From a virus: a stretch of 52,981 nt of DNA. The DNA lies in the UHGV virus genome UHGV-1367038. One strand, 5' to 3'. The position numbers and the translations under genes are program-made. Of the stretch, positions 17,941 through 48,847 are shown in pieces; the stretch's first letter is position 1; each line of letters begins with the position of its first letter. The notes beneath the pieces were generated by a model. The model worked only from the letters and a program-made list of their open reading frames with translations. It was not told the DNA's origin and ran no database searches.

Positions 17941-18008
17941 CGTGATTGCGATCACATAAATATACATTTTGTATTGTGATCGCATATCCGTTTTGTAAAC
18001 TGAAATCG
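17941..18008 (+). promoter_or_regulatory. Conserved intergenic element: CRP-like palindrome cGTGA-N6-TCACA plus ATCCGTTTTGTAAAC block
   Basis: About 65-bp element shared with 21509..21576; lies 30-95 bp upstream of the next ATG. Confidence 0.45.
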
Positions 18009-18035
18009 AAAGGTTTACGACACGGAGGAAACAAG

Positions 18036-18254
18036 ATGGAACGCGAATTGATGCTCTACTGCGTAGAATGTGGCGTAGGTCATGATGCCTACGTCGCCGG
18101 GAAAAGCTATCCAGCCGATGAAGTGCTTTCTAATATGCACTTTAGAGAAAACGAATTTCAAATATCAGTATGGAAGCGATGCATTGATGGAATTGAGGTC
18201 GTTAGCCTTGAAAGATATTTAGGTAAATTCGACTACGGATTAATGGAGGCTTAA
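18036..18254 (+). CDS. Hypothetical Cys-containing small protein
   Basis: GGAGG RBS; MERELMLYCVECGVGHDAY. Confidence 0.5.
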   Translation: MERELMLYCVECGVGHDAYVAGKSYPADEVLSNMHFRENEFQISVWKRCIDGIEVVSLERYLGKFDYGLMEA

Positions 18255-18256
18255 CA

Positions 18257-18349
18257 ATGGACGACGCATTGTTATTCATGTGCATTTGCTGGGGATTTAT
18301 TGCTTTATGCTTATTTGTAAGATGGTTTATTGAATATCATATGAGGTGA
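18257..18349 (+). CDS. Small membrane peptide (30 aa)
   Basis: GGAGG RBS; MDDALLFMCICWGFIALCLFVRWFIEYHMR. Confidence 0.4.
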   Translation: MDDALLFMCICWGFIALCLFVRWFIEYHMR

Positions 18350-18352
18350 TGT

Positions 18353-18547
18353 ATGGAACAGGAAACTGATTACAGAATACCTGAAAACCTAAAGTTGGTA
18401 GGCATTGGTTTTGATTGTAGTTTTGTATCTGACGCAAACGGGGCGATTTATTTAGTGCGCATCATTGATGGCGTTCAGCATATAAGAAGGCTAGGACTTT
18501 ACATCAAAGCATTCAGAAGAGGTTATTTAAAAGCTCATGAAGTTTAA
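18353..18547 (+). CDS. Hypothetical protein
   Basis: 64 aa ORF. Confidence 0.45.
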   Translation: MEQETDYRIPENLKLVGIGFDCSFVSDANGAIYLVRIIDGVQHIRRLGLYIKAFRRGYLKAHEV

Positions 18548-18740
18548 ACACTATAAAGAATGGAAAATTCCAGAATCAGCAACAAAGGCAGCGCCAGGAA
18601 ATTTTTCTGGAGTTTATTTTTATATGGATGGCAAATGGTATTTCGGCAGCAGGCCGGATCACTATTATCAGGAAATATGCAAGACGCACGTATGGGATAT
18701 TAAAGAGCGTGTGAAAGATGGGGTGATCGAGGACGTTTAA
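18537..18740 (+). CDS. Hypothetical protein
   Basis: 67 aa ORF. Confidence 0.45.
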   Translation: MKFKHYKEWKIPESATKAAPGNFSGVYFYMDGKWYFGSRPDHYYQEICKTHVWDIKERVKDGVIEDV

Positions 18741-18741
18741 A

Positions 18742-18978
18742 ATGATTAAGAGCTTTTTTAACTGGTTGGGAGCGTGGATTTTATCCACGTTTTTTGTTTT
18801 CATGGCGTTCATGGCTGTTATCACTGTTATCATGCTTGGCGCTATGTTTATTACGTGGTCGCTGCCTGAATTTAACGAAATAGGCGATATCCTTGCCGCA
18901 GGTCGCGCTTTATTAACGGTTAGCGCATTTATCGGGTTTTGCTGGGCTGCCGCGCCAGATTGGGATGATCCTTTTTAA
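18742..18978 (+). CDS. Hypothetical membrane protein
   Basis: 78 aa; two predicted TM segments. Confidence 0.5.
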   Translation: MIKSFFNWLGAWILSTFFVFMAFMAVITVIMLGAMFITWSLPEFNEIGDILAAGRALLTVSAFIGFCWAAAPDWDDPF

Positions 18979-18980
18979 TT

Positions 18981-19214
18981 ATGGCTTTATTCAACATGTC
19001 AGAGCCGCAATTCAACGCCGTTAAAAATGCCGCCCGCGCGGCGCTTTCTGCCTGCAAAACTGAGGTGGAAAGAAACGGCTATAGCGATAAAGCCACGCGG
19101 CTGATACTCGACGAGCATTATCGCAAGGTCGCCCCGCTAATCAGCATTGAGCGTTTCGTGTGGTTGGTGGGGTATATGAATAACAGATGGGGAACTGATC
19201 AGGATTATTTCTAA
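18981..19214 (+). CDS. Hypothetical protein
   Basis: 77 aa ORF. Confidence 0.5.
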   Translation: MALFNMSEPQFNAVKNAARAALSACKTEVERNGYSDKATRLILDEHYRKVAPLISIERFVWLVGYMNNRWGTDQDYF

Positions 19215-19223
19215 GGGGGCGTA

Positions 19224-19763
19224 ATGAAAAATGATTTCGGCGGTAGCCATACGCCGCAGGAAATTAAAGACCTATGGCAAACGCCTAAGCCTGTCTTTAG
19301 AGGAATGGATCGGGAATTCGAATTCGTCGCGGATGTGGCGGCAAACAAGGCAAATGCATTAGTTCCGCGATATATAACCGAAGAAATGGACACACTACAT
19401 TATCCATGGGGAGCGGTGGCGATGCCTGGTGAATATGTCTGGATGAATCCACCATATTCTAATCCTGGGCCATTCGTTGATAAAGCGGCGCTGGAACATC
19501 ATCGAAACCATATCGGATGCGTAATGTTATTGCCCGCTGACATTTCTGTTAACTGGTTTATGAACGGCGTGGAGACGGCAAACGAATGCCGTTTAATCAC
19601 GCGCGGGCGACTGGCGTTTATCAATGCCGCGACTGGTAAACCAGTAAGCGGAAACAATAAAGGGAGCTTATTCTTGATCTGGCATCCACGATGCAGACAT
19701 GAATGTATTTTCACGCAGATAACACGTAAAGAGCTATATGCAAGAGGTGCAGAAAATGAGTAA
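19224..19763 (+). CDS. dam: Phage N6-adenine DNA methyltransferase (Dam-like)
   Basis: 179 aa; NPPY catalytic motif (VWMNPPYS). Confidence 0.7.
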   Translation: MKNDFGGSHTPQEIKDLWQTPKPVFRGMDREFEFVADVAANKANALVPRYITEEMDTLHYPWGAVAMPGEYVWMNPPYSNPGPFVDKAALEHHRNHIGCVMLLPADISVNWFMNGVETANECRLITRGRLAFINAATGKPVSGNNKGSLFLIWHPRCRHECIFTQITRKELYARGAENE

Positions 19764-20247
19764 AGCGGCTGAATTGCTAAGACTTGCGGCTGAAACTATT
19801 GAAGCAAGAGGGGAACAAAACGGATACGATCGAAAAGAAGAAAAATCAGCGCCAAAAATAGCCACTATTTACAACGCTAAGAAGGGGACAAATCTAACCA
19901 CGCTTGATGTATGGGATCTACTAATTTGTCTCAAGGAGGCGCGATTAGAGGCCATTTTAAGCAATGGTAGCGACCCGCTCGATACTCTTATAGACCTTAT
20001 TGCTTATAACGCGCTAAAAGCGGAGCAAATATTAACGGAGCGGGAGGAAGAACAAAGAAAGAAACAGGCTGTTTTTGATATGCCGTTAAATTGCGGCTGT
20101 AAGAAAGCCTCAATACCTGGCGACCTGATCGCCAGTGGTGAAGTAACGCTAAATGATAGCTTCCTACTTGATAACGGCTGGCGGTTTAATAAAGAGGCTT
20201 TATTGTATACACCGAAGGATCATAAAGATGGAAAGGGTGATGATTGA
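19756..20247 (+). CDS. Hypothetical protein
   Basis: GAGG RBS; 163 aa. Confidence 0.5.
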   Translation: MSKAAELLRLAAETIEARGEQNGYDRKEEKSAPKIATIYNAKKGTNLTTLDVWDLLICLKEARLEAILSNGSDPLDTLIDLIAYNALKAEQILTEREEEQRKKQAVFDMPLNCGCKKASIPGDLIASGEVTLNDSFLLDNGWRFNKEALLYTPKDHKDGKGDD

Positions 20248-20731
20248 CAGGTTATTAGCCTGCGTTTATGTCGCCGTTTTCGTTATCATCAATCTTATTG
20301 TTAATCACTGCGGCCCGTGGGTAATTCCGATCACCACGGTAGCCGCCGTGTATGTCAATATGATGATCCGTGACTTCCTGTTATATGACGGCGGCCTGAA
20401 ATGGTCGGCTACAACATGCGCCGCCGCTGGCGCAATCACGGTGCTGATAAACTACGATGCCGGAATGGTGGCGATTGCGTCATTCGTCGCGGTTGTTTCC
20501 GGTGCGCTTATTTCTGGCGGTGTTTACAGGATTTTACCTGGCGATTTCGACTCAAAACGCTGGCCTGCGAATATAGCGTCAGCCATTGGCGATTCGTTAA
20601 TTTTCCCCACGCTATCGTTTATGGCATTCATGCCGGAAATATCAGCTATGCAATTCATCTCAAAAATGGCAGCGGTAACGGTGATCACTATCATCATGCG
20701 CCGCTACTTTACATTCGAGGGTAGGAAATGA
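20228..20731 (+). CDS. Integral membrane protein; weak resemblance to YhhQ/DUF165 transporter family
   Basis: Multiple hydrophobic segments; RW...AS..G..D..F..F.AF pattern near C-terminus; family assignment is speculative. Confidence 0.5.
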   Translation: MERVMIDRLLACVYVAVFVIINLIVNHCGPWVIPITTVAAVYVNMMIRDFLLYDGGLKWSATTCAAAGAITVLINYDAGMVAIASFVAVVSGALISGGVYRILPGDFDSKRWPANIASAIGDSLIFPTLSFMAFMPEISAMQFISKMAAVTVITIIMRRYFTFEGRK

Positions 20732-21486
20732 GTGGGCTTAGAAATTGGGTGGTGTGGTCGCTGTACGACGGCAGCGGATACGCCGTTAAAGATTGGGCCG
20801 ACGCTGGTTATAAATGCTATTGCTTCAACTATGATGGCGCTAATCACGGCGATTATGAAGGCGTCAAAATCATTCATCCGAACATTGAGTATGTCAACGT
20901 ATGGATTGACAGCCATTTCCTGGTGATGTTCTCCCCTGAATTGTCTGTATATCCAGATCCTGACATTATTTTGGCCTTCCCGCCGTGCGACGATCTCGCT
21001 GTTTCCGGCGCTCGCTGGTTTGCTGATAAGCGGAAAAAAGATCCTCACTTTCAGGATAAGGCAGCGTATAACGCAAAACTGGTGGAAACGCTGGCTGACA
21101 TGTACCACGTGCCGTGGATGGTGGAAAATCCGGTGGGCGCACTGTCAACGTTATGGCGTAAACCGGATTTTATCTTTAATCCGTGCGCTTACGGTGGTTA
21201 TCTGCCTGAAGATGATGAACATCCATCTTTCCCGGATGTTTACCCTCCGCGCGACGCGTATACGAAGAAGACTTGTATCTGGTGTGGTAACGGATTTAAA
21301 CAGCCTCTTTTTAGACCTGTAGATCTTAACTCTGATGATAACCCTGGCTGGGCGAAAACAGGAGGCAGGACGAAAAGGACTAAGATGATCCGCTCGCTAA
21401 CGCCGCGTGGATTCGCCAGAGCTGTATTCCTGGCTAACGACCGGGCAATCACGAGGACTACTCTTAACCGCGTTTTACCGGATTGA
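20728..21486 (+). CDS. DNA cytosine-5 methyltransferase-like protein (short form)
   Basis: FPPCDDLAVSG resembles C5-MTase motif IV (PPCQxFSxAG); ENPVG resembles motif VI (ENV); DGSG motif I-like. Confidence 0.45.
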   Translation: MSGLRNWVVWSLYDGSGYAVKDWADAGYKCYCFNYDGANHGDYEGVKIIHPNIEYVNVWIDSHFLVMFSPELSVYPDPDIILAFPPCDDLAVSGARWFADKRKKDPHFQDKAAYNAKLVETLADMYHVPWMVENPVGALSTLWRKPDFIFNPCAYGGYLPEDDEHPSFPDVYPPRDAYTKKTCIWCGNGFKQPLFRPVDLNSDDNPGWAKTGGRTKRTKMIRSLTPRGFARAVFLANDRAITRTTLNRVLPD

Positions 21487-21508
21487 TGTTTACAAAATGG
21501 CGTCATTG

Positions 21509-21576
21509 TGTGATGAGGATCACATAATGGCGCTTTATTGCTTGTTCGCATGTATCCGTTTTGTATACTTCAAACA
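21509..21576 (+). promoter_or_regulatory. Conserved intergenic element: perfect CRP-consensus palindrome TGTGA-N6-TCACA plus ATCCGTTTTGTATAC block
   Basis: TGTGATGAGGATCACA at 21509..21524; homologous to 17941..18008. Confidence 0.5.
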
Positions 21577-21647
21577 AACAAAATGCTCTTTAAAAATCCG
21601 GTAACGCTGAAATGCGTAAAAATCACCTGAAAAAAGGAGAGAGCATT

Positions 21648-21824
21648 ATGCCTTTTGAGAATTACCAATGGCATGACGACTATGAGAGAGAAAGTGTCAT
21701 GCGTGCAATGTGCAATGTATGTAGCACTAAGAAAGGAGAATGTAACGAGTGCAACGAATGCGTAGATCGCTTGCTAAGGGCAGGACACGCCGAAAGGCTG
21801 AACGAAACAGAGAATCAAAAATAA
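21648..21824 (+). CDS. Small Cys-rich (zinc-finger-like) protein
   Basis: GGAGAG RBS; CNVCSTKKGECNECNEC. Confidence 0.5.
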   Translation: MPFENYQWHDDYERESVMRAMCNVCSTKKGECNECNECVDRLLRAGHAERLNETENQK

Positions 21825-21838
21825 TCGGGGTGGTTTTT

Positions 21839-22444
21839 ATGCAAAACCCTAAGAAACCAATAAGACGCCGTTGCAAATGCTGCGGCGTTTTTTTTGAGCC
21901 TAAATATCACAATCAGACGTGGTGCAGTGACGAATGCCTGGAAGAACTGAAGTTTGACCAGCTATGCCGCGACCGTGAGAAGGCTATGAAGGCAATGGAA
22001 CGGAAGAAACGCCGTGACAGCCAGCGGGAAGAACGCAACCGGAAGCGGAAACAGTTAAATCCGCGCAGCTACTGGCTGAAACAGGCGCAAGCGGTATTTA
22101 ATGCCTATATCCGCGAACGTGACGCGCGGTTACCGTGTATATCATGCGGCACTTACTACGGTGAGCAATGTTCATGGGATGCGGGCCATTATAGAACGGT
22201 CGCCGCCGCCGGACACCTTCGCTTCAATGAAGATAACGTCCACAAACAATGCAGACACTGCAACCAGACGTTAGACGGCAACATCGGAGGTTATCGCCAG
22301 GCGCTGATTAGAAAAATCGGCCTAGCCAGGGTGGTAGCACTGGAGAACAACAACGATACGCACAAATGGACGATCGAAGAATGTAAGGAGATCATAAAAG
22401 TTTATCAGGCGAAGTTGGACGCCTTAAGGAGAAAGGCAGCATGA
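21839..22444 (+). CDS. ninG: NinG/Rap recombination-associated protein
   Basis: Resembles lambda NinG (RRCKCCGVFF..LPCISCGT..WDAGHYRT..HKQCRHCNQ..WTIEECKEI); GGGGTGG RBS. Confidence 0.8.
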   Translation: MQNPKKPIRRRCKCCGVFFEPKYHNQTWCSDECLEELKFDQLCRDREKAMKAMERKKRRDSQREERNRKRKQLNPRSYWLKQAQAVFNAYIRERDARLPCISCGTYYGEQCSWDAGHYRTVAAAGHLRFNEDNVHKQCRHCNQTLDGNIGGYRQALIRKIGLARVVALENNNDTHKWTIEECKEIIKVYQAKLDALRRKAA

Positions 22445-22848
22445 ATGAATATACTTTTAGCCTGCCTTACCCTCCATCAGCAAATAAATATTACCGCCAC
22501 GCCAGAGGATTTAACTATATAAGCAAGGAAGGCAAGGAATACAGGGAGCAGGTAAAAGATATTATAGAACTGCTTAATCTGAATATTAACCTTAAGTGTA
22601 GGCTATCAATAACGGTGTATATTGCGCCGCCAGATAGTAGACGCCGCGATATTGATAATGTAGGAAAAGCGTTATTTGACGCTATAACTTATTCCTGTTT
22701 TTGGGCTGATGATAGCCAGGTTGATGCAATGAAGTTTGTCCGCTGCCGGAAGGTAAAAGGAGGGCGACTATTTATCAAGGTACGCGAACGCGGCGACCTG
22801 CTACCGGATATTGACGAATACGCGACCAATATGTGGGGTGAGCAATGA
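22441..22848 (+). CDS. rusA: RusA-family Holliday junction resolvase
   Basis: 135 aa; LPYPPSANKYYRH..RRRDIDN..FWADDSQV..KGGRL pattern of RusA. Confidence 0.85.
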   Translation: MNEYTFSLPYPPSANKYYRHARGFNYISKEGKEYREQVKDIIELLNLNINLKCRLSITVYIAPPDSRRRDIDNVGKALFDAITYSCFWADDSQVDAMKFVRCRKVKGGRLFIKVRERGDLLPDIDEYATNMWGEQ

Positions 22849-23027
22849 AAAACGAAATTAAAGATCTGCAAATTGATATTCAGCGCGACGAGCGTGATTT
22901 AGAAACGGTCAGACAAATCCAGGCTTTCCACATGCGAGAATTACTCGCGCTAAAAGAGTTTGAAAGGAAGTTAGTGCAAGCTATTTCTGATCGCAAACGC
23001 CTTGTTGCTCGTTACGGGGGCAAATAA
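22845..23027 (+). CDS. Hypothetical protein
   Basis: 60 aa ORF, coupled. Confidence 0.45.
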   Translation: MKNEIKDLQIDIQRDERDLETVRQIQAFHMRELLALKEFERKLVQAISDRKRLVARYGGK

Positions 23028-23755
23028 TGAATTTAGAGTCAATTCTAAAATTCCACTTTCCTAAATCGCCGCGATTATCAGACGAAAGCCGTGGTACATC
23101 CCCTGATGCGCTTAATACTACTGATGCGCTTACCGCAGCTGGTATGGCGCAATCTCGCGTAGAGCTTGGATATAGCGCTTTTTTGGGAAAGATGGAGCTA
23201 TCGCAAGCCGAAAAACACAGGGCCGTAGTTTTGCTTACAGAGCGTTTAAGAGCTATGGCAAAAGATTACGAATACGTCATGGAACTGGACGAGGAAAAGC
23301 GCAATGATTTTATTATTCTTGTTGCCGTTTTCGCGTTTCGGGATTACTGCCAGAGTGCAGCGACCGAAAAAGTTTGCCCTAAGTGCTGCGGTCACGGGCA
23401 TTTACCAAATCAATATTGCAAATACACATCAACAATTTGCGCACGGTGCGGCGGCAAAGGCTACGTTAAAAACCATTGCCAGCGGTGCAAGGGCCGTGGC
23501 GAAGTACCGGATAAAGCAGCCAGCGAGGCAGCGGAAATGCCAGTTTTCAGAACGTGCCAGCATTGCGGCGGGCGCGGGTACTCGCGTTTCCCTGTAGATC
23601 TTGTCCGGCAGGCGGTTAATCAGCTTGTTTTTCCGGTAAGCCGATCAACATGGTGGAAGAAATACAGGGTTTTCTATGAGGACGCCATAGCTGAGCTATT
23701 CAAAGAAGAAGCCCGCGCGGAAAGCGAAATCAAGCGAGTGACGAGAGGTGAATAA
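23027..23755 (+). CDS. Putative late-gene regulator (Q-like antiterminator candidate) with DnaJ-type CxxCxGxG zinc fingers
   Basis: CPKCCGHGH, CARCGGKGY, CQRCKGRGE, CQHCGGRGY; position after NinG-RusA as in lambdoid phages. Confidence 0.4.
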   Translation: MNLESILKFHFPKSPRLSDESRGTSPDALNTTDALTAAGMAQSRVELGYSAFLGKMELSQAEKHRAVVLLTERLRAMAKDYEYVMELDEEKRNDFIILVAVFAFRDYCQSAATEKVCPKCCGHGHLPNQYCKYTSTICARCGGKGYVKNHCQRCKGRGEVPDKAASEAAEMPVFRTCQHCGGRGYSRFPVDLVRQAVNQLVFPVSRSTWWKKYRVFYEDAIAELFKEEARAESEIKRVTRGE

Positions 23756-23958
23756 TGGATAAGTTGGAAATAAACGATCAGTTCGCTGTTATCTTATTCG
23801 AAGATAAAACAGGCGGCGCATGGTGTAAGAAAGTCACTGGTGCTGAAGCGCGTTTAATATTAGGCATGGCAAGCGCATTAAACGAAGGCGAATTACCAGC
23901 AGTTCCCATTGAACCAGTTCACATTTACGGACGGAAGAAAGACGATGAAAATAATTAA
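23755..23958 (+). CDS. Hypothetical protein
   Basis: 67 aa ORF. Confidence 0.45.
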   Translation: MDKLEINDQFAVILFEDKTGGAWCKKVTGAEARLILGMASALNEGELPAVPIEPVHIYGRKKDDENN

Positions 23959-24292
23959 CATTGGGTGGTTGTATTGCGAAAACTGCGACGAAGACGGCAT
24001 GGTCGTTAAGACTGAAAAAGGCTGCGGCCTCTTTCTGTATCAAGGCGATAAGTTTGTTTGCCCGCGATGCGGTGGTAGTGGTGAAATAGAAATTATTGAA
24101 GATAGCGCAACAGCGCCAGATCCAGAGCGCATTGTTCTTGATGAAAAAATAAAAATTCATCCTGATTTATTACAGCAAATCATCGATCACGTATCGGCAG
24201 CAGCAATCTACAGCAATAACAATTATCAGCGTGAAATTAACGTCAAACGTGCGCTTGAGCAATATTTTAAGGGTGACGATGATGAAGCCTAA
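23945..24292 (+). CDS. Small zinc-ribbon protein
   Basis: CENCDEDG...CPRCGGSG. Confidence 0.5.
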   Translation: MKIINIGWLYCENCDEDGMVVKTEKGCGLFLYQGDKFVCPRCGGSGEIEIIEDSATAPDPERIVLDEKIKIHPDLLQQIIDHVSAAAIYSNNNYQREINVKRALEQYFKGDDDEA

Positions 24293-24551
24293 ATTAAAAG
24301 AACATCTATTTGCAAAGCTGGTTAATGACCTGACATTATCCGCGCGGTTGTGTCGTGATACGCAACAATTAGGGGCGTGGATAGCAAGGGATTTAAGAAA
24401 ATACATTGAGCCGGGCGGACCAGGCGATGAAATGACGATGGATAAGGCCATCAAGCGCCGGACGGCTGAATGGTCAGTGAGTAATACCGGATTAACCGGA
24501 TACATCGAAGGCTACAACGACTGCTTACAGGATCATAGCGATGGCAAGTAA
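24282..24551 (+). CDS. Hypothetical protein
   Basis: AAGGGTG RBS; 89 aa. Confidence 0.45.
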   Translation: MKPKLKEHLFAKLVNDLTLSARLCRDTQQLGAWIARDLRKYIEPGGPGDEMTMDKAIKRRTAEWSVSNTGLTGYIEGYNDCLQDHSDGK

Positions 24552-25064: not shown

Positions 25065-25068
25065 CAAT

Positions 25069-25655: not shown

Positions 25656-25665
25656 TGGGGCAAAT

Positions 25666-27544: not shown

Positions 27545-27763
27545 ATGATTTTAACGTGTAATAGATCGGAATTAGGTTGTTTTGAGGAAGGCGTACAGTA
27601 TGCGGCTGAAAAACCGATGGGGTTGTCTCCTAAATTCCCGTTCATCGTCGTGACTGACACTTACGGTCACTTATGGTACGCAGAGCCGCTGTGCGGTATT
27701 GGTCGTTATGTTGTCCGTAGCTCTGACGGTGCGATGAAGGTTAATTTTACGGAAGAAACATAA
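27545..27763 (+). CDS. Small protein, paralog family member 4
   Basis: TCNRSELGCFEEGVQY ... DTYGHLWYA. Confidence 0.5.
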   Translation: MILTCNRSELGCFEEGVQYAAEKPMGLSPKFPFIVVTDTYGHLWYAEPLCGIGRYVVRSSDGAMKVNFTEET

Positions 27764-27782
27764 ATGTGATCTACCCCGCAAA

Positions 27783-27826
27783 GTTTACAAAATGGCATTG
27801 TTCCGGCAGTGCCATTTTGTTATAAA
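27783..27826 (+). promoter_or_regulatory. Conserved inverted-repeat element ACAAAATGGCA-N12-TGCCATTTTGT followed by TATAAA
   Basis: Homologous to elements at 44124..44166 and 47170..47217. Confidence 0.45.
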
Positions 27827-27861
27827 GAAGCTGAAGAGAGAACGATGCGGAGGGTAGAAAA

Positions 27862-28140
27862 ATGAAACGCTGGATTAACAAAGAAGTCGAATCTCGCTTA
27901 AACGCATTTTGGGAGATGGTGGAGAAAGAAGACCCAGCACACGCTGCAAGCCCTTATCTGAACAACATTGAATATCACTACATTGCAGCAAACAACGCGG
28001 AGTTCGAGGAAGAAGGAGGGGCAGACAAGTTTGCACAAAGTAACGCATTCAACAACGCAAACGAAATGATGATGGCAGTTATCGAACAGGCAGAGGAAGA
28101 CTACGAATGCAAAGCACTTGAATTTGCACGCATGGCATAA
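27862..28140 (+). CDS. Hypothetical acidic protein
   Basis: GGAGGG RBS; 92 aa. Confidence 0.5.
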   Translation: MKRWINKEVESRLNAFWEMVEKEDPAHAASPYLNNIEYHYIAANNAEFEEEGGADKFAQSNAFNNANEMMMAVIEQAEEDYECKALEFARMA

Positions 28141-40987: not shown

Positions 40988-40989
40988 TT

Positions 40990-41837: not shown

Positions 41838-41850
41838 GAGGTAATTAAAC

Positions 41851-42327
41851 ATGTCTCAGACTTGCGAAAAAGGCGCATTTTTGGGCCGCGACGTGGCTGT
41901 ATTCTTCGCTATCGCTTGTCCTAACGCGAAGCCAGAAGATGGAGAATACAATGCGTTAGGCATGATGCGCGGCAAAACGCTTTCCGTTGAATGGGAAACG
42001 GCAGACGCCACCGCTGATAAATCAGCAAACTACACTAAGGAATCAATGGTAACTTACAAATCCGTTTCTTTCTCCGGCGACGGCGTATCCCGTACTGAAG
42101 AAATCCACAACCAGAAGACGTTGAAACGTCATACCATTAACCCTGGTGAAACTACTGGTAATCAACCTTATGTATGGTTGAAAATCGTTTCTCCTGTAGA
42201 TGTGACCGAGGGGCCGTTCCTTTGCACCTCCTTTAAAGAAGAAGATCCACACGATGATGTTTCCACCTGGTCAATCGAGTGTGAAAGCGCTGGACAGGTA
42301 AGTGTGGAAGATATTCCAGAAGCATAA
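41851..42327 (+). CDS. Major tail (tube) protein
   Basis: 158 aa; followed by terminator; position before chaperone and tape measure. Confidence 0.5.
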   Translation: MSQTCEKGAFLGRDVAVFFAIACPNAKPEDGEYNALGMMRGKTLSVEWETADATADKSANYTKESMVTYKSVSFSGDGVSRTEEIHNQKTLKRHTINPGETTGNQPYVWLKIVSPVDVTEGPFLCTSFKEEDPHDDVSTWSIECESAGQVSVEDIPEA

Positions 42328-42345
42328 CAAATAACATTAACAATC

Positions 42346-42369
42346 GGGGCCATCTGGCCCCTTTCTTTT
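42346..42369 (+). terminator. Rho-independent terminator after major tail gene
   Basis: GGGGCC-atct-GGCCCC then TTTCTTTT. Confidence 0.7.
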
Positions 42370-42381
42370 AGGGTGACAGTT

Positions 42382-43059
42382 ATGATCCATGTTCGAACAG
42401 GACAATTTGCAGCCGTGGTAGACGGCAGGCGGTACGTATTTAATCCCTGCTTCGCCGCGATGGCTAAGATCGGCAGTGACACCGAACTGGTGGAATACTT
42501 CGCAATCATCCACGGTGGCAAATATCCATCACGATTACCAGCAGATCCAGACTTACGCAATCGCATTCTGGCGCGCTGTTATGGTGAGATAGTGCAAACG
42601 TCCATGCACATCCTGAAATGTTGCGCAGAAGACGAAACAGGGCCATTGCTGGGCGAATGCAGATTCACTTCCTCCGGCAAGTTGAGACTAAAACCCGGAT
42701 TGATGCCAACAGAGGATGTAATCACGCTGGCACAGCATTGCATGTACCACGGTTTAATCGGTGACGGGCCGGAAGAATACGACGGTGAGATCCGGGAAGG
42801 TGAATATAAGCCGACATTTGATGTTCTTGAATTCGTTTACTCTGCCGTTGCTCACCTTGGATTGTCAGAATCAGAAGCGTGGAACATGACAATGACCGGA
42901 TACAGGGCCGCTGTACGTGCTAAAACGCCTCCAGACGAAAGAAACGAAAGAAGTAAGCCAAACGTTCACATAAATAAACGTGCTTATGACGAGCAAATGG
43001 AGGCCGCTAAAAAGGCGCTGGAAAGAATGAAAAATCGCAAGCAAGAAAAAGCCCGGTAG
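42382..43059 (+). CDS. Putative tail assembly chaperone
   Basis: AGGGTGA RBS; position between major tail and tape measure. Confidence 0.45.
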   Translation: MIHVRTGQFAAVVDGRRYVFNPCFAAMAKIGSDTELVEYFAIIHGGKYPSRLPADPDLRNRILARCYGEIVQTSMHILKCCAEDETGPLLGECRFTSSGKLRLKPGLMPTEDVITLAQHCMYHGLIGDGPEEYDGEIREGEYKPTFDVLEFVYSAVAHLGLSESEAWNMTMTGYRAAVRAKTPPDERNERSKPNVHINKRAYDEQMEAAKKALERMKNRKQEKAR

Positions 43060-43082
43060 ATCCGGGCGTTCTCTTTTATTTG
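43045..43082. terminator. Bidirectional terminator between the plus-strand chaperone gene and minus-strand moron cassette 1
   Basis: CCCGG-tagat-CCGGG flanked by A-run upstream and T-run downstream. Confidence 0.55.
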
Positions 43083-43378
43083 TATGCTGAAAACCTGCAT
43101 CTTGCTTCTTCTAAATCGCTTACTGTATACACGTTCTCAAAAACATACGTCGCAACCTGTACTTTTTGCACGTCCGTAGCGTTAGGGAATTCCATGCTGG
43201 CGAACGTTAAAGCGTCGACGTAGTGTTTAAACATTTTCTTGTTTACGCATAGCGCGTAAATCAATACAGCAGGCCAAAAAATCAGAGCGCCAATAAAAGC
43301 CATAAGCATGTTTAAGTGTTTTTTACCAGCTACGACCATAGTCACAACGAATCCAATGAAGCCAATTATTAGTTCCAT
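43076..43378 (-). CDS. Moron 1d: membrane protein
   Basis: AAGGAGG RBS; MELIIGFIGFVVTMVVAGKK; two TM segments. Confidence 0.5.
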   Translation of the reverse strand: MELIIGFIGFVVTMVVAGKKHLNMLMAFIGALIFWPAVLIYALCVNKKMFKHYVDALTFASMEFPNATDVQKVQVATYVFENVYTVSDLEEARCRFSAYK

Positions 43379-43389
43379 GATGCGCCTCC

Positions 43390-43497
43390 TTATTTGCATT
43401 CGCCTTTTATTGTCAGTGCCAGCACGAATACAGCCATTACATTAAAAGCTACCCATGCTGACATATACACGTCTATGATGCTTTTGATAATATCCAT
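43390..43497 (-). CDS. Moron 1c: small membrane peptide (35 aa)
   Basis: GGGGG RBS; MDIIKSIIDVYMSAWVAFNVMAVFVLALTIKGECK. Confidence 0.4.
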   Translation of the reverse strand: MDIIKSIIDVYMSAWVAFNVMAVFVLALTIKGECK

Positions 43498-43498
43498 G

Positions 43499-43849
43499 TT
43501 ACGCCCCCGCCTCAATTCTGTTATGAATTGCGAATCCTTTAACTTCGCCGTCATGAATCACTTTTAATTGTTCAGGATCTTTTAATCCTTCAACTATTTC
43601 TTTGTATTTTTCGTGTAGTCTATATTCTTCAACAATTTTTTTATCAAGAAATGGCACTACTGCTTTATATTCACATGCTGCGTTATATACGATCTCAACA
43701 TAACCCATGCTGTCACCATACTTGATGTCGTACAATTCAGCGGCAACCGCGCATTCATGTTTTGCTTTATCAACTTTGTTTTCTGCGTTAGCACCAAATG
43801 CAAATGCTGCAATCATCGCCGCCATCACTGCTTTTGCTAACCGTTTCAT
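43499..43849 (-). CDS. Moron 1b: secreted/periplasmic protein
   Basis: GAGGTGG RBS; Sec signal peptide MKRLAKAVMAAMIAAFAFGANA. Confidence 0.6.
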   Translation of the reverse strand: MKRLAKAVMAAMIAAFAFGANAENKVDKAKHECAVAAELYDIKYGDSMGYVEIVYNAACEYKAVVPFLDKKIVEEYRLHEKYKEIVEGLKDPEQLKVIHDGEVKGFAIHNRIEAGA

Positions 43850-43861
43850 AAACCACCTCGC

Positions 43862-43951
43862 TTAATTTTTGTTTTTAAGTGCTTTTAACATTTCTTCGAT
43901 GAAATCAGCATAGCGTTCATATTCGTTGGGGCGGTAGTTTACGTTTTTCAT
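43862..43951 (-). CDS. Moron 1a: small hydrophilic peptide (29 aa)
   Basis: AGAGGA RBS; MKNVNYRPNEYERYADFIEEMLKALKNKN. Confidence 0.35.
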   Translation of the reverse strand: MKNVNYRPNEYERYADFIEEMLKALKNKN

Positions 43952-44123
43952 TTTCTTATCCTCTTTTGCTTCCTCCGGTTTATCCGGCCTTTTAAAATCC
44001 TTTTCCTGCTTCCTTAGTTTTAGGGGATTTCGCCTCCCTCGTTCCTTCGGTTAGCTGGGCTTCAAGTCTCAATCCTTTATATCCTTCGACCTTCTTTTCC
44101 CTCTCTCATCCTTCACCTTCTTT

Positions 44124-44166
44124 ATACAAAATGGAGTCGTTGAAGTGAAGCCATTTTGTATAAAAT
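44124..44166 (+). promoter_or_regulatory. Conserved inverted-repeat element TACAAAATGG-N16-CCATTTTGTA followed by TATAAAAT
   Basis: Near-identical to 47170..47217; lies between moron cassette 1 and tape measure gene. Confidence 0.5.
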
Positions 44167-44201
44167 AGAGACGTAGATCACATTTTGTATGAGGTTAAAT
44201 C

Positions 44202-46544
44202 ATGGCTACCAGTTTAGGTACAATTTATTACGAAGTTGACGCCAAAACGGGGCAACTTCTTGTCGTGCAGCGGCAAGCAGATCAAACGTTTGACACCATC
44301 GAGCGCGGCGCAAAACGTGCCGATCGCCAGGTGAATACACTTAAAACGTCAATCAAAACACTGACCAGGGCAATCCACCTGCTACTTGCTGCCGAGGCTG
44401 TGCGCCAGTTTATTGATATGGCGGAACAGGCAAAACAGTTACGCGTAAAAATCAAAATGCTGACAGGTGATGCCGAGTCTGCCGGACGGGTTTTCGATGG
44501 TCTGAAAGCAATATCCAGGGAGACAGGTCAGAGCCTGAAAGATACTGGCGAATTATGGCAAGGACTGGCTATCTCACTCAAGAACACCTCCGCCACGGAA
44601 GGGCAACTGCTTAACCTGGTTGGCACTATTCAGAAAATGGGTGCGCTAGGAGGTGCGTCAGCGGAACAAATGTCTAACTCAATGCGCCAGTTCCGCCAGG
44701 CTATCGACGGCGGCGTATTGCGTGCTGAAGAATTCAACAGCCTACTTGAAAACACTCCCACCATCGTACAGACAATGGCCCGCCAGATGGGGTTATCAAT
44801 GGGCCAGTTCCGCGCTGAAATGCTGGACGGCAAGATCACGGCTGAAAGGATGGTCAACGCAATCCAGGCGGCTACGCAGGAAACAAACGATAAGTTTGCT
44901 CAGTTGCCGCGCACATCCGGCATGGCTATCAACGAACTAAAAGTCGAAGTGATGGGCCTGGTTGAGCAACTGGACGATCTTTTCGGTGTATCAGATGGCG
45001 TGGTATCAGCTATCGACTTAATCACGAAGGTCGTTAAAGGGTTAGGTGAGGGCGCTAAATTCGCTAAAACCTGCTTCGACACACTCAAAACGGCTGGTAG
45101 CGAATTTATCGACATGTTTGATGATGTTGCTGTTAAAGCTGGTGAGGTGGCGGAGAAGATCATCGCAATGGTGACGCCAATCAAGGCGCTAATGGATGCA
45201 TATAAATGGATGAAGGAGGTAGTAGGAGAGCAAACCGACGAATATAACAGCAACTACGAGAAGAAATACGGGAAGACCGTTGGCAAGGTCATGCAACTAC
45301 AGGATGATCTGACAGCAGCAATCCAGGCTACAGAAGAAGCAAGGAAAAATGAACAGAATGCTGCCAATGACGGAGCGATTACCGGATTCGACAAGCCAGT
45401 TGATAAGCCGAAAAAGCAGAAAAAAGAGAAGAAATCGGAAGCCGATCGTCTTGGTGACAGGGGTATAAGCGTTTCTGACCAGTACAATAAAGACGCAGCA
45501 GCTATGCGCAAAGCGTTAGAGAACGGCAAGGCTATTGATGCTGCATTCGCTCAGGGGAAAATAACACTCCTTGAGTACCGCGCAGCGCAAAAGGGGATCG
45601 GCAAGGAACTGAAGGAAGAATTAGCGCAGATCCCTGCAGATGAATTACGTGATAAATGGGCGCAAATAGTAAGCCCGATGGATCAGCTTAAAGGCGAGGT
45701 TGACCCTATTCAGCAGGCGCAAAATGAATGGGCCGTCCGTAAGCAAATGTTGTTAGATCTGAACGCATCAGAGGCGCAAATCAGGGCCGAGCAACTCCAG
45801 CATGAAAGGACCATCACCAGCCTTAAATGGGAACAATGGCAGGCGCAAAGCGATACAAACGGCCTGATCGGTGATTGCGTTAACGGCCTTAAAGGCGGTA
45901 TGAGCAATGCGCTCGTCGGCCTGCTTAACGGTACTCAATCATTGAGCGATGTTTTTGCTAACTTAGGGAGCAATATACTAGGGAACATCGGTAGCAGACT
46001 TTCTGACATAGCCGCCGACTGGATAGCAGATCAAATCATGATGGAGACGCAAAGCAAGGCCACGCAAGCCAGTACAACGGCAAGCGCGGTAGCCGCTCAG
46101 GGAAGCATAGCGGCGGCGGCGGCCCCGGCGGCGGCAGCGACAGCGGCATCAACTGGCGGTAGCTGGGCGGCGGCTGGTTCTGCGGCGCTAACTGCAATCA
46201 TGTCGCTGGCAACATCCATTTTCGGCGGCAGGCGCTTTAATGGTGGTAGTGTCATTGGCGGCAATTTGTACCGTGTCGGGGAAAATAACAGAATGGAGCT
46301 ATTCCAGACGCCTAACGGCAACCAATATATGATCCCTGGCGAGAATGGCAGAATCATCCCTGGCCGTGACATTGGCGGCGGTGGCGGTATTAGTATGCCT
46401 GTCAGTATCAGCATTCAGACCACAAACGGATTTAGCGAAGAAGACAGCCGCAGACTTGAATCAACAATGGAACGTGTAGCCATGAAAATGATAACAAGGG
46501 AGTCGCAAAGACCAGGCGGTATATTGCAGCCGCGCCGCAAATAA
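44202..46544 (+). CDS. Tail tape measure protein
   Basis: 780 aa; tape-measure N-terminal domain; coiled-coil middle; Gly/Ala-rich C-terminus. Confidence 0.85.
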   Translation: MATSLGTIYYEVDAKTGQLLVVQRQADQTFDTIERGAKRADRQVNTLKTSIKTLTRAIHLLLAAEAVRQFIDMAEQAKQLRVKIKMLTGDAESAGRVFDGLKAISRETGQSLKDTGELWQGLAISLKNTSATEGQLLNLVGTIQKMGALGGASAEQMSNSMRQFRQAIDGGVLRAEEFNSLLENTPTIVQTMARQMGLSMGQFRAEMLDGKITAERMVNAIQAATQETNDKFAQLPRTSGMAINELKVEVMGLVEQLDDLFGVSDGVVSAIDLITKVVKGLGEGAKFAKTCFDTLKTAGSEFIDMFDDVAVKAGEVAEKIIAMVTPIKALMDAYKWMKEVVGEQTDEYNSNYEKKYGKTVGKVMQLQDDLTAAIQATEEARKNEQNAANDGAITGFDKPVDKPKKQKKEKKSEADRLGDRGISVSDQYNKDAAAMRKALENGKAIDAAFAQGKITLLEYRAAQKGIGKELKEELAQIPADELRDKWAQIVSPMDQLKGEVDPIQQAQNEWAVRKQMLLDLNASEAQIRAEQLQHERTITSLKWEQWQAQSDTNGLIGDCVNGLKGGMSNALVGLLNGTQSLSDVFANLGSNILGNIGSRLSDIAADWIADQIMMETQSKATQASTTASAVAAQGSIAAAAAPAAAATAASTGGSWAAAGSAALTAIMSLATSIFGGRRFNGGSVIGGNLYRVGENNRMELFQTPNGNQYMIPGENGRIIPGRDIGGGGGISMPVSISIQTTNGFSEEDSRRLESTMERVAMKMITRESQRPGGILQPRRK

Positions 46545-46548
46545 ACAA

Positions 46549-46580
46549 AACCCCGGTACAATGCCGGGGTTATCTTTTAT
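46549..46580. terminator. Bidirectional terminator after tape measure gene
   Basis: CCCCGG-tacaatg-CCGGGG then TTATCTTTTAT. Confidence 0.7.
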
Positions 46581-46753
46581 TCATTATCAAAACTTGTATA
46601 TCCTCTCTCAATTTTCCCGCCTCTTACGCTTTTGGCGAATACTGCGTCAGTGTATTTGAAAAACGGTTCTGTGTATGTATCGCCTTTCGTGTCCATCCAT
46701 TTTACGATCCAGGCCATGCGTTTGACGTTGCTTTTATTTGCAGTGACTTTCAT
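46577..46753 (-). CDS. Moron 2c: small protein (58 aa)
   Basis: GGAGG RBS; MKVTANKSNVKRMAWIVKWMDTKGDTYTEPFFKY. Confidence 0.45.
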   Translation of the reverse strand: MKVTANKSNVKRMAWIVKWMDTKGDTYTEPFFKYTDAVFAKSVRGGKIERGYTSFDNE

Positions 46754-46771
46754 TTTATTTTCCTCCGCAAA

Positions 46772-46864
46772 TTACAATCTTCCGTTTCTTGCTATGTAGC
46801 TGCGAGCAAACATCACTTGCCAGATGTTCCATATTTCACGCCAGGTGAATTTATCGTCATTCAT
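46772..46864 (-). CDS. Moron 2b: small protein (30 aa)
   Basis: GAGGTAGG RBS; MNDDKFTWREIWNIWQVMFARSYIARNGRL. Confidence 0.35.
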   Translation of the reverse strand: MNDDKFTWREIWNIWQVMFARSYIARNGRL

Positions 46865-46871
46865 ACCTACC

Positions 46872-47126
46872 TCACTTATGCGCACCTTTGACGCCGCAGT
46901 GCCTGTTATATTCAAGATGATCGATGATTAACCATACCTTGAGGTCTTCACTGAACAGCCGCCAATCAGGGTTGATGTCAAATTTGAAACCGTATCCGTC
47001 GCGTAACTTTTTGGGGTACGCTTCTTTCTTCAGAAACGCTTTGAGCAATTCCTTACCTTTCTTGATGATCCGGTCCTGTGCGTTTTTCTGTGCTTTCAGG
47101 TTTTTGTCAATCGCTACCAGTTTCAT
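46872..47126 (-). CDS. Moron 2a: basic hypothetical protein (84 aa)
   Basis: ORF with start at 47126. Confidence 0.5.
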   Translation of the reverse strand: MKLVAIDKNLKAQKNAQDRIIKKGKELLKAFLKKEAYPKKLRDGYGFKFDINPDWRLFSEDLKVWLIIDHLEYNRHCGVKGAHK

Positions 47127-47169
47127 AACATCCCCCTTTGCGTAACGTCTTTCTCATTTGCTTTCTGTA

Positions 47170-47217
47170 TACAATATGGAGTTCATAAAGTGAAGCCATT
47201 TTGAAAACTGGTTATAA
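47170..47217 (+). promoter_or_regulatory. Conserved inverted-repeat element TACAATATGG-N16-CCATTTTG followed by TATAAT
   Basis: Homolog of 44124..44166; near-CRP site TGTGA-N6-TCTCA at 47222..47237. Confidence 0.5.
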
Positions 47218-47293
47218 TTCCTGTGATGAATGTCTCATTTTTCGCGTAGAATCGCGTAAAGATATATACAAAATGTAACTTATAGGGGGTTTT

Positions 47294-47647
47294 ATGCCTG
47301 AAGTGTTCCGATGGACACCACAAAGAAGCTACAGCGTAAACAGTGAGCCTAACGTGTCTGTCATTAAACTGGGTGATGGGTATGAACAGAGGCAGACAAA
47401 AGGGATTAACCCTTTACTTGATAGCTATACGCTGGTCTTTAAGGGTACGAGCGCAGGATGCGGTGACGCCGGAAACGTAGCGCTACAGGTTGACGCATTT
47501 TTAAGAGCACGTTGCGCGGTCGAGGCGTTTTACTGGACTCCATCAACGGATGGAGTTCAAAGGCTTTTTGTATGCCGAAAGTGGAGCATGACGAAAGACG
47601 GCCCGGTATGCACGCTGAATGCAACGTTTGAACAAGTTGTCAATTAA
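47294..47647 (+). CDS. M: Minor tail protein M-like
   Basis: 117 aa; DGYEQR motif and C-terminal ATFEQVVN resemble lambda M. Confidence 0.8.
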   Translation: MPEVFRWTPQRSYSVNSEPNVSVIKLGDGYEQRQTKGINPLLDSYTLVFKGTSAGCGDAGNVALQVDAFLRARCAVEAFYWTPSTDGVQRLFVCRKWSMTKDGPVCTLNATFEQVVN

Positions 47648-47660
47648 TGGAGGTGTCAAT

Positions 47661-47846
47661 ATGTATGCTATTTGTGTAGTTGACCGCACTGGCGCTTTTA
47701 CATTGTTTGACGACTACGAGATCAACGACCTTACTGTAAAAGCTGATAATGGTGAGACCTGGTATCTTCATGACGTTGGTGACGGGTATGTTGGGTGCAG
47801 GTCGAGAGAAGGCAAGGAAGTTTTATTCTTACTTGATGGCGTATAA
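47661..47846 (+). CDS. Hypothetical protein
   Basis: GGAGG RBS; 61 aa. Confidence 0.45.
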   Translation: MYAICVVDRTGAFTLFDDYEINDLTVKADNGETWYLHDVGDGYVGCRSREGKEVLFLLDGV

Positions 47847-47852
47847 ACACGA

Positions 47853-47876
47853 CCCCGCGCGAAGCGGGGTTTTACA
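47853..47876 (+). terminator. Rho-independent terminator
   Basis: CCCCGC-gcgaa-GCGGGG then TTTTAC. Confidence 0.65.
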
Positions 47877-47947
47877 TTGTTGATAGCAGAATAAACAATA
47901 ATCCTATTATTATAATAATCACTTCTAATATGTAGTGATAACACATA

Positions 47948-48196
47948 TCATAATGTTTCCCTTAAGTATGTTAACCCCTTATCAGTGACGAATGAATGAT
48001 TAACCTGGTTTTCATCCGTCATGATGATGAATAACTTTTCCTGTAGGTATTTCGCTTTAGGGTACAGCGTTAAGCAGACCTTGTACAGTATCCCGCGCTC
48101 AATCAGCAAATCAATAAATTCGTGCTCATGATAACCGATGAGGCGGGCGGCCTGTTTCAACGTGTACACATAATCGCCGTGATTGCGCCGCCCCAT
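47948..48196 (-). CDS. Moron 3c: small protein with possible HTH
   Basis: AAGGCGG RBS; YTLKQAARLIGYHEHEFIDLLIERGILY. Confidence 0.5.
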   Translation of the reverse strand: MGRRNHGDYVYTLKQAARLIGYHEHEFIDLLIERGILYKVCLTLYPKAKYLQEKLFIIMTDENQVNHSFVTDKGLTYLRETL

Positions 48197-48205
48197 GTTG
48201 CCGCC

Positions 48206-48568
48206 TTATTTATCGAATGCGCTCAGGTTATCTATGCAGAAGTCTTTCGCGGCTTTTTCGTATTCGAGTTTTGCTTTCGGGTCGTCTGCCGGGAAACCTT
48301 TTGCGTGTATTTCGCCAGGGCAAGCCTGATCCATAGAGTTAGCAAAATTAACATTGAGGTTCACATTAATATCTTTCGGGTTCATAGCATTGTCCTCGTC
48401 TTGTTCGTCGTCTGGTATTTCTATCGGGTTAACTGTAAAGTCACATGCCCTGTTCCAGCACCGGAGTATTTCAATACCTTCGACTCGCGCCTTTTCATAC
48501 GTTTCGAATATCCCAAGATATTCCCATTCTTGCCTGTCAGTCCATACATCTAAACGCCATTTTCTCAT
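48206..48568 (-). CDS. Moron 3b: hypothetical acidic protein
   Basis: Start at 48568 or 48580; overlaps 3a by at least 32 nt. Confidence 0.45.
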   Translation of the reverse strand: MRKWRLDVWTDRQEWEYLGIFETYEKARVEGIEILRCWNRACDFTVNPIEIPDDEQDEDNAMNPKDINVNLNVNFANSMDQACPGEIHAKGFPADDPKAKLEYEKAAKDFCIDNLSAFDK

Positions 48569-48755
48569 TTCGCCCACCATTGAATTTAATAGGTTTAATC
48601 CGGTAGCCCATTACTCGATCATCTTTTTCTGATAGGTCTAAGGCCGTATCTAATGCGTCTCCAGGATTATCGAATTCAGCATCGACATCACGCCCATTAC
48701 TCATAAATAAGGTTAGTATCCATAACTTGTCATTCATTCCGCGCCATTGTTCCAT
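48537..48755 (-). CDS. Moron 3a: hypothetical protein
   Basis: AAGGAGG RBS before ATG 48755; MEQWRGMNDKLWILTLF. Confidence 0.5.
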   Translation of the reverse strand: MEQWRGMNDKLWILTLFMSNGRDVDAEFDNPGDALDTALDLSEKDDRVMGYRIKPIKFNGGRNEKMAFRCMD

Positions 48756-48831
48756 TTTGTTGACCTCCTTCCGTTTGAGTAAAATATACATATTGTAAAA
48801 ACCGAGATCAATCCATTTTGGTATGATTTAG

Positions 48832-48847
48832 CGTGACACAGATCACA
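48832..48847 (+). promoter_or_regulatory. CRP-like palindrome cGTGA-N6-TCACA about 20 bp upstream of L
   Basis: CGTGACACAGATCACA; preceded by ATCCATTTTGGTATGA block. Confidence 0.4.

Follow-up and report, generated by a model that had tools for sequence, protein, structure and literature searches.

The mEpimmI phages are a recently described family of Nus-dependent, non-lambdoid temperate coliphages, reported to be as common in human feces as lambdoid phages (PMC11893012). Of the regulatory elements, the accessible literature on the family describes nut sites and terminators alone; it puts nutL upstream of rep and nutR2 on the downstream side of the cytosine methyltransferase gene, with t4 listed as a predicted terminator (PMC11893012). 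Direct control of a coliphage promoter by cyclic AMP-CRP (cAMP-CRP) has been shown experimentally for the pir promoter of phage T1, where it acts by repression and ties lysis-lysogeny behavior to sugar supply (PMC6737242). Both the CRP consensus and the class I CRP position are described in PMC10199772. Composite promoter-terminator cassettes, termed PeSLs, occur in T4-type phages (PMC2839356, PMC4122927). Here we analyze the virus genome UHGV-1367038, a stretch of 52,981 nucleotides (the window), which carries in its intergenic regions a repeated 16-bp palindrome of the type TGTGA-N6-TCACA. The palindromes resemble CRP sites and mostly stand at a near-fixed distance upstream of a promoter-like module. 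We propose, with a probability of roughly 0.47, that they are operators for a dimeric CRP-type regulator, most probably host cAMP-CRP, within a cassette of the mEp021 family.

The nearest matches of the window are exclusively mEp021-group phages at 83-85% identity (megablast of 16-24 kb), namely mEp021, mEp010, mEp013, mEp044, mEp515, mEp554 and MagusPhagus. Related prophages are present in ~35 complete E. coli genomes at 78-93% identity. Judged by these matches, the window is a mEp021-like (mEpimmI) temperate E. coli phage. Comparison loci were taken from IMG/VR as a set centered on the Dam gene (L002-L051) and a set centered on the minor tail gene (L052-L131), together comprising ~45 family members and, as controls, ~55 loci of unrelated phages. 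A search of one-genome-per-species contigs with the methyltransferase returned no relatives in other bacterial species. Because neither non-E. coli nor heteroimmune relatives were found, a host factor and a phage factor are not separable by that route.

Palindromes and their likeness to CRP sites

A sequence-only reading had named four CRP-like palindromes, beginning at 17941, 21509, 47222 and 48832, and all four are present. Three sites absent from that reading are equally good or better: 12781-12796 beside PL, 27765-27780 and 44167-44182. The scores below come from a symmetrized CRP weight matrix trained on a set of 20 classical CRP sites, of which only the lac site was verified (in E. coli genomes).

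12781..12796, no strand: palindrome TGTGACTTGTATCAAA beside PL; 16.1 bits; 0 kcal/mol as RNA
17941-17956: palindrome CGTGATTGCGATCACA, the first site of the sequence-only reading; 13.7 bits
21509-21524: perfect palindrome TGTGATGAGGATCACA; 18.9 bits
27765..27780, no strand: palindrome with one good half in the window; 13.2 bits
44167-44182: half-palindrome AGAGACGTAGATCACA; 12.9 bits
47222-47237: weak palindrome TGTGATGAATGTCTCA
48832-48847: palindrome CGTGACACAGATCACA; 17.1 bits

With at most one mismatch, TGTGA-N6-TCACA occurs 8 times in the 53-kb window versus 1.36 expected, and none of 100 shuffled sequences reached 8. The form GTGAY-N4-RTCAC, again with at most one mismatch, occurs 19 times (4.1 expected); its three perfect copies, 17941, 21509 and 48832, are all intergenic. 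The core TGTGA-N6-TCACA is perfect at 21509 and carries one mismatch each at 17941 and 48832 (CGTGA) and at 12781 (TCAAA). On the CRP matrix, the top six matches in 53 kb are exactly the six intergenic cassette sites, and sites of at least 12 bits number six, compared to 1.7 in simulated sequence. The training CRP sites score 6.4-17.6 bits on their own matrix (median 12.9 bits); the six phage sites, at 12.9-18.9 bits, fall within or above this range. The column-by-column correlation between a matrix of the phage sites and that of CRP is r = 0.89, versus 0.11 ± 0.12 (maximum 0.57) for a column-shuffle null. No site of at least 14 bits was detected in ~934 kb of unrelated phage DNA; the mEpimmI loci contain 10.4 per 100 kb. 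The weight-matrix check proposed with the original four sites therefore separates them: 21509, 48832 and 17941 are upheld (13.7-18.9 bits), and 47222, at 8.5 bits, is at background level. Overall, binding is predicted at five to seven conserved CRP-like palindromes in the genome.

The half-sites at 21509, 48832 and 12781 are invariant among the ~45 relatives, and their central 4-5 bases are hypervariable. These sites have 17, 14 and 7 alleles, respectively, all of at least 14.8 bits. The 17 alleles at 21509 all retain GTGAT....RTCACATAA with the four central bases free (16.8-20.4 bits), the 14 alleles at 48832 combine fixed halves with a variable center (14.8-18.4 bits), and 12781 is near-invariant in 42 relatives (16.0-16.9 bits). 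Selection on the contacted half-sites with a free center is thus seen at these three sites, and is not seen at 17941 in many relatives. Two alleles exist at 27765; the window has the half-site TGTGATCTACCCCGCA, and many relatives carry the full TGTGATCTGTATCACA, scoring up to 18.7 bits. The half-site at 44167 is conserved. At 47222 the relatives score 5-14 bits, with a conserved TGTGAY..TCTCA pattern.

Most of the good half-sites contain GATC, as GATCACA or TGTGATC (17950, 17975, 21518, 27768, 44176 and 48841), and the phage has a Dam methylase of its own (19224-19763). Dam methylation at these half-sites could modulate binding. Control by Dam/GATC was rejected as the conserved feature itself: GATC is present in most half-sites but lost in many 21509 alleles.

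A promoter-like module in register with the palindromes

The palindromes at 17941 and 21509 had been described as part of a shared intergenic element of ~65 bp. This element is real and collinear, consisting of the palindrome, 17 nt, TTGNNN, 16 nt and TAWACT. A block with the pattern ATCCGTTTTGTAWAC is enriched in the window (24 occurrences versus 3.7 expected), as is its core CATTTTGTA (10 versus ~0.5). Aligned on the hexamer after TTTTG, the cassettes read 16-bp palindrome, 17-18 nt, TTGNNN, 16-17 nt ending in CCATTTTG, and TAWAMW. The block originally noted as ATCCGTTTTGTA is best read as the spacer plus the -10 of a predicted sigma-70 promoter. In the early region the relevant elements are:

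12735..12762, minus: PL-like promoter, -35 TTGATC (12762-12757), 16-nt spacer with CTCCATTCTG, -10 TAAACT (12740-12735)
12657-12648: nutL boxA, downstream of the PL-like promoter
13594-99 and 13617-22: PR, TTGACT and TATATT, respectively
17974..18001, plus: promoter-like module, -35 TTGTGA 17974-17979, spacer with ATCCGTTTTG, -10 TAAACT 17996-18001
21542..21569, plus: promoter-like module, -35 TTGTTC 21542-21547, spacer with ATCCGTTTTG, -10 TATACT 21564-21569
21584..21617, plus: nutR2, boxA TGCTCTTTAA 21584-21593, boxB ACGCTGAAATGCGT 21604-21617, beginning 15 nt past the -10

Several observations argue that CCATTTTG-TAWAMW is part of a promoter. Between rep and nutL it provides the only plausible PL core (TTGATC-16-TAAACT). 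The copy at 21564 has boxA and boxB of nutR2 15 nt downstream, mirroring the arrangement of PL and nutL. In addition, ~10 of 13 strong copies, by our own reading of the cassette alignment, face a gene start 36-90 nt away, and at 21509 CTTGT (-35) and GTATCCATTTTGTATACT stand as footprints between variable stretches. The -10 hexamers TAAACT, TATACT, TATAAA and TATGAT are acceptable for sigma-70. The -35 of the PL-like promoter varies only as TTGAYC in relatives, and the boxA of nutR2 is identical at nutR1 (13665-74) and nutL (12657-48).

The spacing between palindrome and module is tightly constrained. The gap from palindrome to -35 is 17-18 bp at four sites, and the fifth shares the register to the -10. 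From the site center to the first base of the -10, the distance is 47.5 bp at 17941 and 21509, and 48.5 bp at 12781 (to the leftward PL -10), 27765 (rightward) and 44167 (leftward). In the related loci it is 47.5 bp in 60 site-motif pairs, 48.5 bp in 35 and 46.5 bp in 1. With the start predicted 7 nt past the -10, the site center would be at -59.5 to -60.5. Two or three sites overlap the predicted transcription start (+1) instead: 48832, 44167 when read rightward and, weakly, 47222.

The 17941 palindrome comes directly after the stop codon of the open reading frame (ORF) 17287-17937, and its module at 17974..18001, whose -35 follows after 17 nt, precedes the gene 18036-18254. Next to the 12781 palindrome, the rep ATG is located at 12822, with TATAGG (12809-14) 7 nt before it, a distance that would suit a leaderless mRNA such as that of lambda PRM. 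The -35 of this putative leaderless rep promoter would lie under the palindrome.

In the tail and moron region the module occurs in divergent arrangements:

44121..44182: back-to-back promoter-like pair, leftward -10 TATAAA 44126-44121, rightward -10 TATAAA 44159-44164
47166..47237: divergent region before the minor tail gene, leftward motif 47181-47167, rightward AGCCATTTTGAAAAC 47194-47208 and TATAAT 47213-47218
48783..48847: divergent region before tail gene L, leftward TTGATC-17-TATATT 48811-48783, rightward extended -10 TGGTATGAT 48819-48827

The inverted motif copies in these regions are predicted to be two back-to-back promoters. Both -10s of the 44121..44182 pair are preceded by CCATTTTG, TATAAT 47213-47218 is conserved in relatives, and the leftward promoter 48811-48783 is called by the consensus promoter scan. 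Each -10/T-tract would read as ACAAAATGG for the opposite promoter, suggesting an A-tract at the proximal UP-element position; PR carries the same ACAAAATGG immediately before its -35. The 48832 palindrome (-2.9 kcal/mol as RNA) lies over the predicted rightward +1. As the palindromes of the tail genes (48832, 47222 and 44167 rightward) lie over a predicted +1, they occupy the position of a repressor, not that of an upstream activator. The suggestion that the sites control internal promoters is supported by analogy (PL core before nutL, 21564 before nutR2).

Downstream of TATAAT 47213-18, TCTCATTTTT is followed by a CGCG-UAGAAU-CGCG hairpin of -6.5 kcal/mol (47232-47262). This stretch resembles boxA/boxB of the three known nut sites; its loop is likewise purine-rich, and its two boxes have no spacer between them. 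It may constitute a fourth nut-like element, preceding the tail genes. Minus-strand clusters between the tail genes (46872-47126 and 47948-48196) encode proteins with a ParE-like toxin domain and a KilAC-type antirepressor domain; they adjoin the divergent promoter regions bearing palindromes.

The noncoding stretch 13476-13622, between the rep terminator (13476-13493) and PR, is almost invariant in ~40 relatives. Within it lies a leftward ATCCATTTTG-TATACT module (13594-13579). The stretch could contain a leftward small RNA of ~100 nt ending at a bidirectional terminator, or UP-element or operator sequences of PR. Minus-strand copies of the motif, TTCCATTTTGTAAAC and ATACATTCTGTAAAC, are found at 9910-9924 and 11046-11060, where they precede the start codons of the helicase gene and of the gene before it by just 17 nt, and each is followed by ATGAGG(T/A)AAT. 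So short a distance leaves no room for a normal promoter. Two more regular-expression matches of the motif, at 4717 and 26123, were attributed to chance on inspection. As judged by eye, a sigma-54, IHF, DnaA-box, Fis or OmpR site, or a gene start, misfits the two orientations and the fixed position of CCATTTTGTA before the -10.

DNA site or RNA hairpin, and the candidate protein

Three of the cassettes also contain stems that could form in RNA:

17947..18025, plus: two RNA-type stems, fold -31.7 kcal/mol, z -4.9
17947-56 TGCGATCACA with 17975-84 TGTGATCGCA, plus: stem 1, -20.6 kcal/mol
17988-18000 CCGTTTTGTAAAC with 18013-25 GTTTACGACACGG, plus: stem 2, extending into the Shine-Dalgarno sequence GGAGG 18024-28
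21499..21534, plus: 16-bp hairpin with TGTGATGAGGATCACA (21509-21524) as its apex, -24.2 kcal/mol, z -5.6
27787..27826, plus: inverted repeat ACAAAATGGCATTG / CAGTGCCATTTTGT, stem of terminator type with a U-rich tail after it, -20.2 kcal/mol, z -5.0

It could be argued from these stems that the palindromes act at the RNA level only, as terminator stems or as processing or stabilizing hairpins, and that their likeness to CRP sites is incidental. The 21499-21534 hairpin is the top terminator-like match, with a T-rich tail TTATTGCTTG (CTTTT in relatives), and corresponds to TERM_4 of the mEp021 record MH706966, the predicted t4. Its 16 pairs and U-rich tract give it the features of a rho-independent terminator (stable G+C stem plus U-rich tract), which 48832 and 12781 lack. 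The right half of 17941 pairs with 17975-84 in stem 1, where one compensatory change (A-T to G-C) is seen in two relatives. In stem 2 (17988-18025), 5 of 13 pairs vary, and in the 27787-27800/27807-27820 stem 5 of 14, in both cases only by A<->G with G.U pairing kept, which is the signature of plus-strand RNA helices. The latter stem (27787-27820), with the core GGCAUUG/CAGUGCC and a AUUUUGUUAU tail, looks like a terminator; the repeat overlaps a promoter-like module with -35 TTGTTC 27798-27803 and -10 TATAAA 27821-27826. Furthermore, the three early-operon cassettes (17941, 21509 and 27765) each start right after a stop codon, and are predicted to join a stem-loop closing the upstream unit to a promoter opening the next. 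An Rfam scan of the whole window found no family at threshold.

In contrast, 48832 and 12781 do not fold, and yet they are among the most conserved sites. Since 12781 (0 kcal/mol) and 48832 (-2.9 kcal/mol) are conserved without a stable hairpin, RNA folding is not the cause, and the constraint acts at the DNA level. The 21509 hairpin has a C.A mismatch at the pair corresponding to CRP position 4 in 21 of 35 rows of relatives, its stem positions are invariant rather than covarying, and unrelated hairpins would not need a common GTGAY/RTCAC. An exclusive role in RNA is thus improbable. We conclude from these comparisons that the shared feature is probably a recognition site in duplex DNA, which at 21509 is embedded in a probable terminator. 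That the sites are bound by a protein as DNA is very probable.

In the 17988-18028 stem, the -10 motif itself serves as the 5' arm, and the 3' arm includes the two leading G residues of the 18036 gene's GGAGG. The stem could form only in read-through RNA from upstream, and translation of the 18036 gene may consequently depend on the promoter used.

The cassettes also coincide with points of gene exchange. Seven left-flank and five right-flank types occur around the 27.8-kb cassette (27735-27875) among 29-30 relatives, seven left-flank types occur at the 48.8-kb cassette (48730-48800), and three relatives carry a different gene downstream of 17941. This suggests that the cassettes act as recombination linkers, for which the PeSLs are a precedent (PMC4122927). 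That they are kept chiefly for this purpose, having spread by duplication with the palindrome as a passenger without regulatory role, is nonetheless highly improbable. A passenger would lack invariant half-sites beside a freely mutating center and would not hold a fixed distance to the -10; moreover, the 21509, 44.1-kb and 47.2-kb cassettes have essentially one flank type.

With regard to the protein, host CRP is the best-named candidate, because no other candidate binder was found, and T1 pir gives a coliphage precedent. Pfam analysis of 20 ORFs around the sites revealed no other regulator. A 77-residue winged-helix protein (11160-11393) has a weak match to a Crp-like helix-turn-helix in Pfam and no BLAST similarity to CRP; it was ruled out as the binder, having four homologues in a large protein database and none in the 45 related loci. 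The protein at that position in mEp021, gp14, is 30-37% identical in most relatives and the sites are invariant, so such proteins cannot explain the sites. More generally, the first genes of the PL operon (11160-12561, minus) encode winged-helix MarR_2 and HTH_36 proteins that are replaced or only 30-37% identical between close relatives. With no palindrome at PR, the immunity repressor was set aside as the binder.

A phage-encoded dimeric regulator, or another host regulator, with a specificity resembling that of CRP could likewise coordinate PL and the internal early and tail promoters. This is unlikely on balance, but an unrecognized phage protein is a serious rival to CRP in view of the lineage restriction and of the constraint at positions 9 and 14 of the sites. 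Palindrome and partner motif are both restricted to the mEpimmI lineage, GTGAY/RTCAC is conserved beyond the CRP consensus, sites overlapping +1 are typical of repressors, and many early genes without a Pfam family could conceal a regulator; the immunity repressor, too, is conserved along with the sites. On the other hand, the Pfam survey yielded no candidate, the winged-helix proteins of the PL operon are hypervariable as opposed to the invariant sites, and the lack of a palindrome at PR makes the immunity repressor unlikely. Both a match equal to the best natural CRP sites and the class I geometry of lac would have to be coincidences.

A number of points weigh against host CRP as the regulator. 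Of the 20 training sites of the matrix, only that of lac was verified. The phage sites add a Y/R preference at positions 9 and 14 (0.9 bit versus ~0 in the CRP set), which could indicate a different protein, and the confinement of palindrome and motif to the mEpimmI lineage is also compatible with a factor encoded by the phage. Identity of the immunity repressor is 92-99% in all relatives, too high for sequence variation to exclude it. As to the sites, the left half of 17941 has decayed in many relatives (-1 to 16 bits), 27765 and 44167 are only half-sites in the window, and 21509 is also explained by the terminator hairpin. The promoter modules have -35 hexamers that match at only 3-4 of 6 positions, they are not called by the consensus promoter scan, and their start points are predictions; the distance from site center to -10 (47.5-48.5 bp) is 1-2 bp shorter than the 49.5 bp of lac P1. 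Finally, the accessible mEpimmI literature, including PMC11893012, makes no mention of CRP. The cAMP-CRP input suggested by the sequence-only reading is accordingly favored by the matrix match, the conserved half-sites and the promoter register, and weakened by the decay at 17941 and by the position of 21509 at a hairpin apex.

Proposed model and comparison with known systems

In the arrangement that we propose for regulation by cAMP-CRP, a cassette would consist of an optional stem-loop or terminator after the upstream gene, the 16-bp palindrome, 17-18 bp, a weak -35, a spacer ending in CCATTTTG, and the -10. As the -35 is spaced from the site as in lac P1, a bound dimer would be a class I activator. 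This upstream arrangement would apply at PL, at the promoter of the 18036 gene, at the promoter before nutR2 and ninF-ninG-rusA-Q, at the 27821 promoter and at the leftward moron promoter 44126. High cAMP-CRP would raise expression from PL and of three further units: the small one that begins at 18036, nutR2-ninF-ninG-rusA-Q immediately past t4, and the 27821 unit. The protein would also occupy the -35 of the putative leaderless rep promoter. In the tail region, CRP would repress the rightward restart promoters (48822, 44159 and, weakly, 47213), whose predicted start is covered by the site. We infer the modules to be active sigma-70 promoters with the start points given, and CRP to be the protein. 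It is doubtful, though conceivable, that the family has wired most of its transcription program to cAMP-CRP, including PL, the nutR2/Q promoter, the moron promoters and the tail restart promoters. Just as tentative is the corresponding notion of one portable cassette of stem-loop, CRP site and promoter that also serves as a gene-exchange junction.

If CRP binds, the mEpimmI phages would be a compact natural case of a virus sensing host carbon status at several promoters, including PL and the operon leading to the late regulator Q, and would link gut nutrients to prophage behavior. Should the whole program be wired in this way, host nutrition would directly gate the choice between lysis and lysogeny, the timing of late genes and the expression of morons. 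Independent of CRP, candidate promoters, stem-loops and operator sites of the mEpimmI family are here given a first map, and a transcription-factor-type site is seen to coincide with the annotated terminator t4. For phage promoters, CRP-type sites have a precedent in T1; those of mEpimmI phages are unmentioned in the accessible literature on these phages.

One recognition sequence at several distant promoters, coordinated by one protein, is found with lambda CII (PRE, PI and PaQ) and P1 C1. CII sites are direct TTGC repeats around the -35, and C1 sites are asymmetric 17-mers. The CII and C1 operators have assigned phage proteins, whereas the mEp021-type sites have candidates only. At T1 pir a single promoter is repressed; here there are five to seven computationally predicted sites, mostly in activator position.

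As for the PeSLs, the phage cassettes share with them a short repeated intergenic stem-loop plus promoter, recurring genome-wide, at exchange points of unrelated genes. In contrast to the PeSLs, to which they have no sequence relation, the cassettes belong to a temperate siphovirus, their stem-loop precedes the promoter, they contain a transcription-factor-type palindrome, and clear mosaic junctions occur at only 2 of the 6 (27.8 kb and 48.8 kb). The mEp021 t4 (TERM_4, MH706966; mEp021 sequence GCGTCATTGCGTGATGTGGATCACATAATGGCGC) is the element at 21499-21534 of the window, and lies between the cytosine methyltransferase gene and nutR2 (PMC11893012). Its designation as a predicted terminator leaves unexplained the CRP-consensus apex and the presence of the same half-sites at the non-folding 12781 and 48832.

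In lac P1 as in the phage cassettes, a 16-bp TGTGA-N6-TCACA site precedes a promoter whose -35 is weak. In lac P1, TGTGAGTTAGCTCACT is followed by 17 nt and TTTACA (verified in E. coli genomes), and the gap in the phage cassettes is 17-18 nt. The spacer between -35 and -10 is 16-17 nt in the phage versus 18 nt in lac, and the site center lies at ~-59.5 to -60.5 versus -61.5. Unlike lac P1, the phage cassettes, whose starts are predicted, have in their spacer the conserved, family-specific CCATTTTG block.

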